A DNA stretch of 38,208 nucleotides from Enterobacteria phage T3, in sequence record NC_003298.1, one strand, 5' to 3'. The position numbers and the translations under genes are program-made. The notes under the pieces are model-generated. The model did not search any database. It was not told the DNA's origin and worked only from the letters and a program-made list of their open reading frames with translations. Positions 2,976-32,779 of the stretch are shown here, in pieces. Positions within the stretch are counted from its first letter, which is position 1. Each line of letters begins with the position of its first letter.

Positions 2976-5630
2976 ATGAACATCATCGAAAACATCGAAA
3001 AGAATGACTTCTCAGAAATCGAACTGGCTGCTATCCCGTTCAACACACTGGCTGACCACTACGGAAGCGCCTTGGCTAAAGAGCAGTTGGCTTTAGAACA
3101 TGAGTCTTATGAGCTAGGCGAGCGCCGCTTCCTCAAGATGCTTGAGCGTCAAGCGAAAGCTGGTGAGATTGCAGACAACGCAGCCGCTAAGCCGTTACTC
3201 GCTACGCTTCTCCCTAAGTTAACCACACGTATCGTCGAGTGGCTCGAAGAGTACGCATCGAAGAAAGGCCGCAAGCCTAGCGCATACGCACCGCTCCAGT
3301 TACTCAAGCCGGAGGCCTCCGCGTTTATCACCCTGAAAGTTATCCTTGCGTCACTAACCAGTACGAACATGACAACCATTCAGGCCGCTGCTGGTATGCT
3401 GGGGAAAGCCATTGAGGACGAGGCACGATTTGGGCGCATCCGTGACCTAGAAGCGAAGCACTTCAAGAAGCACGTTGAGGAACAGCTTAACAAGCGCCAC
3501 GGGCAAGTCTACAAGAAAGCATTTATGCAGGTGGTCGAGGCCGATATGATTGGTCGAGGTCTGCTTGGTGGCGAGGCGTGGTCTAGCTGGGATAAAGAAA
3601 CCACGATGCACGTAGGGATTCGCCTGATTGAAATGCTGATTGAATCCACGGGTCTGGTGGAATTACAGCGCCACAACGCAGGTAACGCAGGCTCTGACCA
3701 TGAGGCACTGCAACTGGCCCAAGAGTACGTGGACGTATTAGCGAAGCGTGCAGGCGCTCTGGCGGGTATCTCTCCGATGTTCCAGCCGTGTGTCGTACCG
3801 CCGAAACCTTGGGTAGCAATCACAGGGGGCGGCTATTGGGCTAACGGTCGCAGACCTTTGGCACTCGTTCGCACTCACTCTAAGAAGGGCTTGATGCGCT
3901 ACGAAGACGTTTACATGCCAGAAGTCTACAAGGCTGTGAACCTCGCGCAAAACACCGCATGGAAAATCAACAAGAAAGTTCTTGCTGTTGTCAATGAGAT
4001 TGTTAACTGGAAGAATTGCCCGGTAGCAGACATTCCATCGCTGGAGCGCCAAGAGTTACCGCCTAAGCCTGACGACATTGACACCAACGAGGCAGCGCTC
4101 AAGGAGTGGAAGAAAGCCGCTGCTGGTATCTATCGCTTGGACAAGGCACGAGTGTCTCGCCGTATCAGCTTAGAGTTCATGCTGGAGCAGGCCAACAAGT
4201 TCGCAAGTAAGAAAGCAATCTGGTTCCCTTACAACATGGACTGGCGCGGTCGTGTGTACGCTGTGCCGATGTTCAACCCGCAAGGCAACGACATGACGAA
4301 AGGTCTGCTGACCCTTGCTAAAGGCAAGCCAATCGGTGAGGAAGGTTTCTACTGGCTGAAAATCCACGGTGCGAACTGTGCGGGTGTTGATAAGGTTCCA
4401 TTCCCGGAGCGCATCGCGTTCATTGAGAAGCACGTAGACGACATTCTGGCTTGCGCTAAAGACCCAATCAATAACACTTGGTGGGCTGAGCAGGATTCAC
4501 CGTTCTGTTTCCTCGCGTTTTGCTTCGAGTATGCAGGCGTTACGCACCACGGTCTGAGCTACAATTGCTCTCTGCCGCTGGCGTTCGACGGGTCTTGCTC
4601 TGGTATCCAGCACTTCTCCGCGATGCTCCGCGATGAGGTAGGCGGTCGTGCGGTTAACCTGCTGCCAAGCGAAACCGTGCAGGACATTTACGGCATCGTT
4701 GCACAGAAAGTAAACGAGATTCTCAAACAGGATGCAATCAACGGCACGCCTAACGAGATGATTACCGTGACCGACAAGGACACCGGGGAAATCTCAGAGA
4801 AGCTCAAACTTGGAACCTCAACGCTGGCGCAACAGTGGCTGGCATATGGTGTAACCCGTAGCGTAACTAAACGTTCGGTCATGACGCTGGCTTACGGTTC
4901 CAAGGAGTTCGGCTTTCGTCAACAGGTATTGGATGACACCATTCAGCCTGCAATTGACAGCGGTAAGGGCTTGATGTTCACCCAACCGAACCAAGCGGCT
5001 GGCTATATGGCTAAGCTGATTTGGGATGCGGTAAGCGTGACCGTAGTTGCAGCGGTTGAGGCGATGAACTGGCTCAAATCTGCCGCTAAGCTGCTGGCTG
5101 CTGAGGTCAAGGACAAGAAGACCAAGGAGATTCTGCGCCACCGTTGCGCGGTTCACTGGACTACGCCGGACGGCTTCCCGGTCTGGCAGGAATACCGCAA
5201 GCCACTCCAGAAGCGTCTCGATATGATTTTCTTAGGGCAATTCCGTCTGCAACCGACGATTAATACCCTCAAGGATTCAGGCATTGACGCACACAAGCAG
5301 GAGTCTGGCATCGCTCCTAACTTTGTTCACTCACAGGACGGTAGCCACCTCCGCATGACAGTCGTTTATGCTCACGAGAAGTATGGCATTGAGTCCTTTG
5401 CGCTCATCCATGACAGCTTTGGGACTATCCCGGCAGACGCTGGTAAGCTCTTTAAGGCTGTGCGTGAAACGATGGTTATCACCTATGAGAACAACGATGT
5501 GCTGGCAGACTTCTACTCTCAGTTTGCCGACCAGCTACACGAGACCCAACTGGACAAGATGCCTCCGCTTCCGAAGAAAGGAAACCTGAACCTGCAAGAC
5601 ATTCTCAAGTCTGACTTTGCCTTTGCATAA
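2976..5630 (+). CDS. 1: Single-subunit DNA-dependent RNA polymerase, T3 specificity
   Basis: 884-aa ORF; specificity-loop segment KRLDMIFLGQFRLQ has Asp (codon 5220-5222) where T7 RNAP has Asn748; T7 numbering anchored by counting R746/R756/Q758 in the remembered T7 sequence. Confidence 0.97.
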   Translation: MNIIENIEKNDFSEIELAAIPFNTLADHYGSALAKEQLALEHESYELGERRFLKMLERQAKAGEIADNAAAKPLLATLLPKLTTRIVEWLEEYASKKGRKPSAYAPLQLLKPEASAFITLKVILASLTSTNMTTIQAAAGMLGKAIEDEARFGRIRDLEAKHFKKHVEEQLNKRHGQVYKKAFMQVVEADMIGRGLLGGEAWSSWDKETTMHVGIRLIEMLIESTGLVELQRHNAGNAGSDHEALQLAQEYVDVLAKRAGALAGISPMFQPCVVPPKPWVAITGGGYWANGRRPLALVRTHSKKGLMRYEDVYMPEVYKAVNLAQNTAWKINKKVLAVVNEIVNWKNCPVADIPSLERQELPPKPDDIDTNEAALKEWKKAAAGIYRLDKARVSRRISLEFMLEQANKFASKKAIWFPYNMDWRGRVYAVPMFNPQGNDMTKGLLTLAKGKPIGEEGFYWLKIHGANCAGVDKVPFPERIAFIEKHVDDILACAKDPINNTWWAEQDSPFCFLAFCFEYAGVTHHGLSYNCSLPLAFDGSCSGIQHFSAMLRDEVGGRAVNLLPSETVQDIYGIVAQKVNEILKQDAINGTPNEMITVTDKDTGEISEKLKLGTSTLAQQWLAYGVTRSVTKRSVMTLAYGSKEFGFRQQVLDDTIQPAIDSGKGLMFTQPNQAAGYMAKLIWDAVSVTVVAAVEAMNWLKSAAKLLAAEVKDKKTKEILRHRCAVHWTTPDGFPVWQEYRKPLQKRLDMIFLGQFRLQPTINTLKDSGIDAHKQESGIAPNFVHSQDGSHLRMTVVYAHEKYGIESFALIHDSFGTIPADAGKLFKAVRETMVITYENNDVLADFYSQFADQLHETQLDKMPPLPKKGNLNLQDILKSDFAFA

Positions 5631-10496: not shown

Positions 10497-10604
10497 ATGA
10501 GGATGATTTGCATTCGTTGTGACAAGCCTTTGAAGAGTCGCGTACCATCACGTCAGTGTCAGTGCAAAGACCCGATCAAGGCTGAGGAACACACCGAGAA
10601 GTAA
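10497..10604 (+). CDS. Small Cys-rich protein (3.7-like)
   Basis: 35-aa ORF MRMICIRCDKPL...; its stop overlaps the phi4 promoter. Confidence 0.4.
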   Translation: MRMICIRCDKPLKSRVPSRQCQCKDPIKAEEHTEK

Positions 10605-10625
10605 TTAACACTCACTAAAGGGAGA
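10603..10625 (+). promoter_or_regulatory. T3-type promoter variant with A at -10 (phi4)
   Basis: AATTAACACTCACTAAAGGGAGA; differs from the consensus only by C to A at -10. Confidence 0.75.
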
Positions 10626-10630
10626 CTTAA

Positions 10631-12370
<1,740 letters not shown>

Positions 12371-19801: not shown

Positions 19802-20734
19802 ATGGCTGAATCTAATGCAGACGTTTATGCGTCCTTCGGTGTGAACAACGCGGTAATGACCGGAAGCACACCTACTGAACACGAACAGAATATGCTGAGT
19901 CTCGACGTTGCTGCCCGTGATGGCGATGATGCAATCGTGCTTAGCGATGAACCGACTTCCCATAACGATGACCCCTATGCGGCAGGTGTAGACCCGTTCG
20001 CTGATGGTGAAGATGATGAGGGCCGCATTCAGGTTCGTATCAGTGAAGATGGCAATGAAGCCGGGTTCGACACTGATGGCGATAACTCTGAGGTGGAGAC
20101 CGAAGGTGAGGACGTTGAGTTTGAACCGCTGGGTGACACCCCAGAAGAACTAAGCCAAGTGACTGAGCAATTAGGTCAGCACGAAGAAGGCTTTCAGGCG
20201 ATGGTCGAGCAGGCAGTTGAGCGTGGACTGAGCGCAGACTCTGTGAGTCGAATCTACGAAGAGTATGAAGCCGATGGCATCTCCGAGAAATCCTATGCTG
20301 AACTAGAAGCTGCTGGCTATAGTCGTGCCTTTGTGGACTCATACATCTCAGGTCAGGAAGCTCTGGTAGACCAGTACGTCAATCAGGTAGTTGCCTTTGC
20401 TGGTGGTCAGGAGCGCTTTAGTGCAATCCATACTCACCTCGAAGCGACAAACCCTGCTGCTGCTGAGTCCCTTGAGTCTGCCATGATGAACCGAGACTTG
20501 GCGACCGTCAAAGCGATTATCAATCTGGCTGGTGAGAGCTACACGAAGAAATTCGGTAAGCCTGCCAACCGTAGTGTTACCAAGCGTGCTACTCCGGTTA
20601 AACCCGTAGCTCGTCAGAAAGAGGGCTTTACGAATCAGGCTGAGATGATTAAAGCTATGAGCGACCCGCGCTATCGTAGCGATTCTGCCTACCGCCAAAT
20701 GGTAGAACAGAAGGTTATCGACTCTAGTTTCTAA
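19802..20734 (+). CDS. 9: Capsid assembly (scaffolding) protein
   Basis: 310 aa, strongly acidic N-terminal half. Confidence 0.9.
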   Translation: MAESNADVYASFGVNNAVMTGSTPTEHEQNMLSLDVAARDGDDAIVLSDEPTSHNDDPYAAGVDPFADGEDDEGRIQVRISEDGNEAGFDTDGDNSEVETEGEDVEFEPLGDTPEELSQVTEQLGQHEEGFQAMVEQAVERGLSADSVSRIYEEYEADGISEKSYAELEAAGYSRAFVDSYISGQEALVDQYVNQVVAFAGGQERFSAIHTHLEATNPAAAESLESAMMNRDLATVKAIINLAGESYTKKFGKPANRSVTKRATPVKPVARQKEGFTNQAEMIKAMSDPRYRSDSAYRQMVEQKVIDSSF

Positions 20735-20755
20735 TTAACCCTCACTAAAGGGAGA
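20733..20755 (+). promoter_or_regulatory. T3-type promoter, class III (phi10), exact consensus
   Basis: AATTAACCCTCACTAAAGGGAGA 23/23. Confidence 0.95.
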
Positions 20756-25456: not shown

Positions 25457-25479
25457 AATTAACCCTCACTAAAGGGAGA
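25457..25479 (+). promoter_or_regulatory. T3-type promoter, class III (phi13), exact consensus
   Basis: AATTAACCCTCACTAAAGGGAGA 23/23. Confidence 0.95.
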
Positions 25480-31800: not shown

Positions 31801-32759
31801 CGCGTCAAGGTATGCTTGGGGACGTTATTAGTGCCACCCTAACAGGCAAGACTACCCGCTGGGAGAAAGAAGGCTTCCTTCGTGGTGCCTCCGTAACTCC
31901 TGAGCAGATGGCTGGCATCAAGTCTCTCATCAAGGAACATATGGTACGTGGTGAGGACGGGAAGTTTACAGTTAAGGACAAGCAAGCGTTCTCTATGGAC
32001 CCACGGGCTATGGACTTATGGCGACTGGCTGACAAGGTAGCTGATGAGGCAATGCTGCGTCCGCATAAGGTGTCCTTACAGGATTCCCATGCGTTCGGAG
32101 CATTAGGTAAGATGGTTATGCAGTTTAAGTCTTTCACTATCAAGTCCCTTAACTCTAAGTTCCTGCGAACCTTCTATGATGGATACAAGAACAACCGAGC
32201 GATTGACGCTGCGCTGAGCATTATCACCTCTATGGGTCTCGCTGGTGGTTTCTATGCTATGGCTGCACACGTCAAAGCATACGCTCTGCCTAAGGAGAAA
32301 CGTAAGGAGTACTTGGAGCGTGCACTGGACCCAACCATGATTGCCCACGCTGCGTTATCTCGTAGTTCTCAATTGGGCGCTCCTTTGGCTATGGCTGACC
32401 TAGTTGGCGGTGTCTTAGGGTTCGAATCTTCCAAGATGGCTCGCTCAACGATTCTGCCTAAGGACACCATGAAGGAACGTGACCCAAACAAACCGTACAC
32501 CTCTAGAGAGGTAATGGGAGCTATGGGTTCGAACCTTCTGGAGCAGATGCCTTCCGCTGGCTTTGTGGCTAACGTAGGGGCTACCTTAATGAATGCTGCT
32601 GGTGTGGTTAACTCACCTAACAAAGCAACCGAGCAGGACTTCATGACTGGATTGATGAACTCTACCAAAGAGTTAGTGCCTAACGACCCTCTTACTCAAC
32701 AGCTTGTGGTTAAGATTTATGAGGCGAACGGTGTTAACCTGAGGGAGCGTAAGAAATAA
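28803..32759 (+). CDS. 16: Internal core protein gp16 with N-terminal lytic transglycosylase domain
   Basis: 1318 aa; N-terminal SLT-like motif ...VAWTESRFVPTAKSKTGPLGIMQF... Confidence 0.95.
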   Translation: MDKYDKNVPSDYDGLFQKEADANGVSYDLLRKVAWTESRFVPTAKSKTGPLGIMQFTKATANALGLRVTDGPDDDRLNPELAINAAAKHLAGLVGKFDGDELKAALAYNQGEGRLGNPQLEAYSKGDFASISEEGRNYLRNLLDVAKSPMAGQLETFGGITPKGKGIPADVGLAGIDHSQKVTQELPESTSFDVKGIEQEAPAKPFAKDFWETHGETLDEYNSRSTFFGFKNATEAELSNSVAGMAFRAGRLDNGFDVFKDTITPTRWNSHIWTPEELEKIRTEVKNPAYINVVTGGSPENLDDLIKLANENFENDSRSAEAGLGAKLSAGIIGAGVDPLSYVPMVGVTGKSFKLINKALVVGAESAALNVASEGLRTSVAGGDADYSGAALGGFVFGAGMSAISDAIAAGLKRSKPETEFDNEFIGPMMRMEARETARNANSTDLSRMNTDNMKFEGEHNGVPYEDLPTEKGAVVLHDGSVISANNPINPKTLKEFSEVDPEKAARGIKLAGFTEIGLKTLGSDDADIRRVAIDLVRSPTGMQSGASGKFGATASDIHERLHGTDQRTYNDLYKAMSDAMKDPEFSTGGAKMSREETRYTIYRRAALAIERPELQKALTPSERIVMDTIKRHFDTKRELMENPAIFGNTKSVSIFPESRHKGTYVPHVYDRHAKALMIQRYGAEGLQEGIARSWMNSYVSRPGVKVRVDEMLKELHGVKEVTPEMVEKYAMDKAYGISHSDQFTNSSIIEENIEGLVGIENNSFLEARNLFDSDLSITMPDGQQFSVNDLRDFDMFRIMPAYDRRINGDIAIMGSTGKTTKELKDEILALKAKAEGDGKKTGEVHALMDTVKILTGRARRNQDTVWETTLRSINDLGFFAKNAYMGAQNITEIAGMIVTGNVRALGHGIPILRDTLYKSKPVSAKELKELHASLFGKEVDQLIRPQRADIVQRLREATDTGPVVANIVGTLKYSTQELAARSPWTKLLNGTTNYLLDAARQGMLGDVISATLTGKTTRWEKEGFLRGASVTPEQMAGIKSLIKEHMVRGEDGKFTVKDKQAFSMDPRAMDLWRLADKVADEAMLRPHKVSLQDSHAFGALGKMVMQFKSFTIKSLNSKFLRTFYDGYKNNRAIDAALSIITSMGLAGGFYAMAAHVKAYALPKEKRKEYLERALDPTMIAHAALSRSSQLGAPLAMADLVGGVLGFESSKMARSTILPKDTMKERDPNKPYTSREVMGAMGSNLLEQMPSAGFVANVGATLMNAAGVVNSPNKATEQDFMTGLMNSTKELVPNDPLTQQLVVKIYEANGVNLRERKK

Positions 32760-32779
32760 TACGACTCACTATAGGGAGA
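32757..32779 (+). promoter_or_regulatory. T7-specificity promoter (phi17), exact T7 consensus
   Basis: TAATACGACTCACTATAGGGAGA 23/23; its TAA is the gene 16 stop codon; the only T7-type promoter in the window. Confidence 0.9.

Follow-up and report, generated by a model that had tools for sequence, protein, structure and literature searches.

A T7-type base at position -10 of the phi3.8 promoter of bacteriophage T3 is shared by its orthologues in T3-type and T7-type phages

The genome of Enterobacteria phage T3 (NC_003298.1, 38,208 nucleotides, analysed here as one window) carries a 23-base promoter for the T3 RNA polymerase between gene 3.7 and the primase-helicase gene 4A (Table 1). It reads AATTAACACTCACTAAAGGGAGA and matches the T3 consensus AATTAACCCTCACTAAAGGGAGA at 22 of 23 positions, the single mismatch being an A for the consensus C, which falls at -10 when the first G of GGGAGA is taken as +1. 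Reading of positions 10603-10625 on the plus strand confirmed what the first-pass annotation had noticed, a T3 consensus altered only from C to A at -10, and the promoter does lie directly upstream of gene 4A, before the primase-helicase gene as that annotation had placed it. The name 'phi4' used there is non-standard, the accepted name in GenBank records being phi3.8. In the T3 record X17255.1 the 23-mer is labelled 'promoter for gene 3.8' and is followed by a stem_loop; in T7M (NC_047867) it is entered as 'promoter phi3.8' together with 'RNase III recognition site R3.8', and phiYeO3-12 (AJ251805) and phiSG-JL2 (NC_010807) carry the identical 23-mer annotated as in T7M. These are the same object as the T3 site, with the same 23-mer, an identical place between genes 3.7 and 4A and the same R3.8 stem-loop, and they differ only in that the records pass over the -10 base without comment. 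In the AP5 genome paper the orthologue, ATTAACACTCACTAAAGGGATG, is entered upstream of gene 4 as the 'Gene 4' promoter (PMC4283147). The promoter is already known and long annotated, its sequence having been public since 1989, and finding it is of low novelty; what is new here is the uniqueness of the core change within the genome, the presence of the A throughout the genus and the pattern of orthology with the phi3.8 of T7-type phages.

A 1.2-kb stretch spanning phi3.8 is 100% identical to the T3 records X17255.1, KC960671.1 and NC_047864.1 and to T7M, and 89-97% identical in many Teetrevirus phages, the hosts of which are Klebsiella, Enterobacter, Yersinia, Salmonella, Citrobacter, Serratia and Pantoea. 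A sequencing error or a strain polymorphism as the source of the -10 A was rejected, since independent T3 and T7M records agree completely over the 1.2 kb, and an error is countered as well by the A in every relative examined.

Table 1. Features at and around the phi3.8 promoter in the T3 genome
Feature	Position	Strand	Basis or remark
Gene 1, T3 RNA polymerase	2976..5630	+	ORF
Gene 3.7, 35 aa (MRMICIRCDK...)	10497..10604	+	Annotation and translation
T3 RNA polymerase promoter phi3.8 (-17 to +6)	10603..10625	+	Class II region; consensus match and GenBank annotation
-10 base of phi3.8, A for consensus C	10610..10610	+	
Predicted transcription start, +1 G of GGGAGA	10620..10620	+	Inferred from alignment to consensus promoter
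Hairpin of RNase III site R3.8, UAAAGGGAGAC-UUAAC-GUUUCCCUUUG	10616..10642	+	Predicted fold; annotated stem_loop/R3.8
Gene 4A primase-helicase, first gene downstream of phi3.8	10670..12370	+	ORF and annotation; 50-nt leader from +1

The promoter is tightly packed between its neighbours. The TAA stop codon of gene 3.7 (10602-10604) overlaps its positions -17 and -16, and the module of promoter and hairpin lies where it is expected, after the lysozyme gene 3.5 (plus gene 3.7 in T3-type phages) and before gene 4 (or 3.8). Gene 3.7 is absent from T7-type phages, in which gene 3.5 abuts phi3.8. Its product, a Cys-rich 35-aa peptide MRMICIRCDKPLKSRVPSRQCQCKDPIKAEEHTEK, was seen in T3-type phages only, and the gene serves as a marker of a mosaic boundary, as homology to T7-type phages starts right after its stop codon. 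The R3.8 hairpin was predicted with an 11-bp stem in both the minimum-free-energy and the centroid folds, and its 5' arm is formed by promoter positions -4 to +7, thus including -3 to +6; GenBank annotation likewise starts R3.8 at promoter -4/-3 and calls the RNase III site putative. Over 19 orthologues the upper stem is 90% paired, with two pairs altered on both sides. In several relatives (L004, L006, L090 and L091) the GGGAGA of the initially transcribed region is changed to GGGATG, and the 3' arm of R3.8 covaries with it, GTTTCCC becoming GTTGTCCC (window positions 10620-10641). These changes at +5 and +6 with their matching 3'-arm changes are compensatory, which supports the hairpin and indicates that promoter positions +5 and +6 are free to vary. 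Given this predicted fold, transcripts initiated at phi3.8 would contain only part of the hairpin and transcripts reading through from upstream would contain the whole of R3.8.

Next we compared phi3.8 with the other promoters of the genome. Ten sites lie within three mismatches of the T3 consensus, all on the plus strand, against none expected from 100 shuffles, and a looser scan of the genome gave 15 sites, which match one-to-one the annotated promoters of phiYeO3-12 (phiOL, 1.05, 1.1, 1.3, 1.5, 2.5, 3.8, 4.3, 6.5, 9, 10, 11, 13, 17 and OR). The triplet from -12 to -10 is ACC in 13 of the 15 T3 sites, ACA in phi3.8 and CGA in one. The 14 T3-type promoters do not vary at -14 or from -12 to -2 save for the A at -10 in phi3.8, and phiYeO3-12, with 15 annotated promoters, follows this pattern, phi3.8 again being the sole core departure. 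The closest comparison is with phi10 (20733-20755) and phi13 (25457-25479), T3 consensus promoters of the class III type, which share 22 of 23 bases with phi3.8, including all the flanking positions that vary in other class II promoters, but carry C at -10 where phi3.8 carries A. It is therefore a T3-type promoter in its overall match to the consensus and in its A at -12 (10608) and C at -11 (10609), but not in its -10 base, for which the other 13 T3 promoters invariably have C. C at -10 is thus a consensus feature and a secondary discriminator, not an absolute requirement. Measured against the T7 consensus TAATACGACTCACTATAGGGAGA, phi3.8 has the A at -10 but lacks the G at -11 and the C at -12. 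The contrast drawn in the first-pass annotation, G at -11 and A at -10 for T7 against C at both for T3, was borne out by the promoters of T7 (L016) and T3.

A perfect T7 consensus promoter, TAATACGACTCACTATAGGGAGA, was itself found in T3 at 32757-32779 on the plus strand, between genes 16 and 17; the promoter of phiYeO3-12 at this place is a phi17 of T3 type (AATAAACCCTCACTAAAGGGAGA). The 400 bp around it are 100% identical to the Yersinia pestis T7-group phages YpP-Y, YpP-R and YpsP-G and 99.8% to phiA1122, and the counterpart in T7M is annotated as 'similar to T7 promoter phi17'. With a T7-type phi17, gene 17 of T3 seems to be without a promoter that its own polymerase should recognise.

The -10 A is not a peculiarity of T3. 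The GenBank phage collection was searched with a 45-mer such that every 28-base megablast seed covers -10. With A at -10 the 45-mer matched 92 phage records, once each, which are all the Teetrevirus records testable by the seed search, and with C at -10 it matched none in the same collection with the same 28-base seeds. The context of gene 3.7 end and promoter was found in 100 records. ESh9 and Patroon, which have flank and +5/+6 variants able to break the 28-base seeds, were read directly and both have A at -10. Four T3-type relatives from IMG/VR, examined as 20-kb stretches, each carry 5-11 ACC promoters and exactly one ACA promoter, which stands about 70 nt upstream of gene 4; a scan of IMG/VR for exact matches to the -10 A variant gave six contigs, too few for statistics. 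As far as sampled, the A at -10 is fixed in the genus Teetrevirus. Divergence among the records amounts to only some 10% in this region, and phi3.8 is invariant all the way from -17 to +4; this invariance is weak evidence for selection because at such low divergence an unchanged base is fairly often expected even if neutral. A perfect match to the T3-type 45-mer was also noticed in Escherichia phage ST2 (OM982647.1, 171,086 bp) at 170305-170349; lying near the record end, it is out of place in a genome of T4 size and may reflect contamination or a chimeric assembly.

We then turned to the phi3.8 of T7-type phages, in which the promoter-plus-hairpin module is kept also. In T7 (L016) phi3.8 and R3.8 resemble those of T3, with an orthologous place after the lysozyme gene and the same kind of hairpin, and differ in that gene 3.8 lies between phi3.8 and gene 4, whereas in T3 gene 3.7 lies upstream of phi3.8. 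The T7 promoter, TAATTGAACTCACTAAAGGGAGA, is identical to T3 phi3.8 (ACTCACTAAAGGGAGA) from -10 to +6, and, like the T3 promoter, it departs from the consensus of its own genome within the triplet from -12 to -10. The two depart at different positions, T7 phi3.8 having G at -12 and A at -11 for the consensus C and G, and T3 phi3.8 having the consensus A and C there and departing at -10. Most T7-type phi3.8 promoters have GAA in the triplet and one has CAA, against the consensus CGA, which is present in the L017 lineage. In an alignment of 19 distinct orthologues of both types the A at -10 and the CTCACTA following it are invariant.

Since the A at -10 is common to the orthologues of both lineages, it is to be seen as a shared state of the locus and not as an innovation of T3 or a step towards T7. 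The first-pass annotation had called the promoter a half-step toward T7 specificity, and this description is not supported, as only one of the three discriminating positions is T7-like, and not -11, the one reported as primary, and as every orthologous phi3.8 in both lineages has the A. We consider that the -10 A is probably an old, retained state of the phi3.8 locus. Two candidate outgroups were tried and rejected: L051 has a consensus ACC promoter before gene 4 with a different downstream hairpin and is not orthologous at the sequence level, and L028 is without a promoter between genes 3.5 and 4. As neither is orthologous at the sequence level, neither polarises the change at -10.

The alignment also has a sharp edge. 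Upstream of about -10, where T3-type phages have gene 3.7 and T7-type phages the end of gene 3.5, the sequences bear no relation to each other; downstream of it the two types closely resemble each other, the hairpin and the gene 4 leader included, so that phi3.8 sits at a mosaic boundary. A group of phages with T7-type (CGA) promoters (L007-L014, L031 and L067) shares the T3-like layout, with phi3.8 about 70 nt before gene 4, and the N-terminal region of their gene 4 is 88-89% identical to that of T3, above the 83% of T7's own gene 4. This suggests that in these phages the gene 4 module was exchanged across polymerase-specificity classes.

The mapping of the determinants of T3/T7 discrimination goes back to the early 1990s. 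Klement in 1990 (J Mol Biol 215:21) reportedly measured the activities of synthetic hybrids of T3 and T7 promoters in which -10, -11 and -12 were swapped, with -11 said to dominate discrimination and -10 to have a lesser effect; Raskin in 1992 is likewise said to have tested T3/T7 hybrid promoters, and Patwardhan in 2009 to have carried out saturation mutagenesis of the T3 promoter. T3 phi3.8 is a natural equivalent of such a hybrid, a T3 promoter with the T7 base at -10 only, whereas the Klement constructs were engineered. Within the literature searched, only general statements were found on the effect of a C to A change at -10 on T3 polymerase, and no T3 transcription start-site or RNA-seq data. 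In the T3 polymerase, which this genome itself encodes, the residue that aligns with Asn748 of the T7 enzyme is Asp749 (codon 5220-5222, motif KRLDMIFLGQFRLQ). One report states that N748 contacts -10 and -11 (PMC5937735, citing Raskin 1992). A review that cites Klement 1990 gives -11, -10 and -12 as the T3/T7 specificity determinants and names -11 first (PMC11617373). In PMC11880802, an analysis of coupling over many T7-like polymerases ties residue 748 to -11/-10, and at -11 D goes with C and N goes with G. These sources agree with the first-pass annotation that -10 and -11 are base pairs read by the specificity loop.

All the other T3 promoters carry C at -10, and the simplest reading of the A is therefore a sub-optimal contact which lowers affinity. 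On balance we favour, with some reserve, the reading, also raised in the first-pass annotation, that the -10 A modestly attenuates phi3.8 for the T3 polymerase. It fits with a non-consensus A being kept across the genus and with the T7-type phi3.8 being off-consensus in the same triplet. We infer both the direction and the size of the effect on strength, as well as the part of selection rather than history in keeping the A. Indirect support, by analogy, may be drawn from two observations on T7: the wild-type T7 polymerase on a TAACT promoter (-11 A) is about one tenth as active as the wild-type pair (PMC11880802), and T7 RNA-seq coverage falls, not rises, after R3.8/phi3.8 (PMC6938266), as if an off-consensus triplet gives a weaker but working promoter. 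Against this, a hydrogen bond from the 6-amino group of adenine to the carboxylate of Asp would in principle still be feasible, so that the penalty may be small. In the mechanism we propose, phi3.8 is a class II promoter for T3's own single-subunit RNA polymerase, fused to the R3.8 hairpin and, outside -10, a perfect copy of the strong consensus of phi10 and phi13. The A lies in the triplet read by the specificity loop (Asp749 in T3) and most likely lowers polymerase affinity moderately, and the weaker internal promoter would then top up transcription of gene 4 and the downstream DNA-metabolism genes.

The alternative that deserves most weight is that the A has no effect of consequence: the T3 polymerase would tolerate it with little loss, an ancestral T7-like base would simply never have been converted, and phi3.8 would be of consensus grade. 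The A common to all T7-type orthologues speaks for this, -11 and not -10 comes first among the discriminators in the review cited above (PMC11617373), and the low divergence of Teetrevirus makes the invariance uninformative. Against it, all other T3-type promoters in T3 and phiYeO3-12 have C at -10, which indicates that the polymerase prefers C; a promoter of consensus strength would be unusual within the class II region; and the T7-type phi3.8 has also been kept off-consensus in the triplet, over much deeper divergence. We regard this neutral explanation as a real but distinctly lesser possibility.

It is improbable that phi3.8 is a recombination joint, in which a T3-type upstream half, brought in along with gene 3.7, was fused to a T7-type phi3.8 already in place, the latter supplying -10 onwards. 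Homology between the two types does begin at about -10, with unrelated sequence upstream and close similarity downstream, and the gene 4 N-terminus of one T7-type group matches that of T3 at 89% identity, against 83% for T7, but the crossover would have to fall exactly between -11 and -10 without flanking homology on the upstream side, and no intermediate forms were found. Such a joint would concern origin only and not function, and is compatible with attenuation.

Still less probable is a constraint at the RNA level, in which the -10 A of read-through transcripts pairs with the U of a conserved GUUC 3' of the hairpin and forms a lower stem of R3.8. The minimum-free-energy fold of T7 does pair -13 to -9 with GUUCG (UGAAC/GUUCG), and an A(-10):U pair is possible in 17 of the 19 orthologues. 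However, no covariation was seen in the lower helix among the 19 aligned orthologues, the T7-type L018 and L021 are without the 3' partner yet retain GAA, the T3-type sequences could form only two base pairs, -10 pairs with a predicted probability of 0.00-0.09 in each of the seven, and the annotated R3.8 starts at -4/-3. In T7 (L016, 9584-9646) and other T7-type phages the G and A at -12 and -11 are kept across deep divergence; as UGAAC and GUUCG are both invariant in T7-type phages, the pairing there is neither supported nor refuted. When -10 was changed in silico from A to C (10563-10685 and the T3-type loci), its pairing probability became about 0.98-1.00 in five of the seven T3-type sequences, with the fold energy lowered by about 2.5 kcal/mol in those five, and was lower in T3 (0.40) and Patroon (0.54). 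By eye, a candidate partner for a -10 C is GAGG at the end of gene 3.7, which could pair with the promoter CCUC; this is probably incidental.

The first-pass suggestion that phi3.8 is usable by both polymerases, the A letting T3-type and T7-type enzymes use it, for instance in mixed infection, is the most improbable of all. A is indeed the T7 base at -10, and T3 has exchanged DNA with T7-type phages (the perfect T7 phi17 described above, whose segment matches Y. pestis T7-group phages at 100% identity). However, phi3.8 is still of T3 type at -11 (C) and -12 (A) and departs from the T7 consensus at 5 of 23 positions, the review cited puts -11 first among the three discriminators (PMC11617373), the coupling analysis pairs N748 with a G at -11 (PMC11880802), and the A is also present in relatives on Klebsiella, Serratia and Pantoea hosts. 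With -11 and -12 of T3 type and five positions off its consensus, the T7 polymerase should not use phi3.8 efficiently, and such use is unlikely.

The comparative value of the finding is modest: the sole core deviation among the T3 promoters is fixed in about 100 related phages and mirrors the off-consensus triplet of T7-type phi3.8. If the A tunes promoter strength, as in the attenuation reading, phi3.8 would be a natural case of promoter output being set through a specificity-loop contact, and it could help in the design of graded or orthogonal T3/T7 expression parts. More tentatively, and with considerable doubt, it may be suggested that phi3.8 has been purposely detuned in both polymerase-specificity lineages through the specificity-loop contact and not through the initiation region, the T3-type phages keeping A at -10 and the T7-type phages G and A at -12 and -11, in a promoter placed between the lysozyme gene, whose product is a polymerase inhibitor, and the replication genes. 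If this were true, the -10 A would be a selected control of dosage or timing, and perhaps a molecular fossil as well, the T3-type specificity having arisen from a T7-like ancestor with A at -10.
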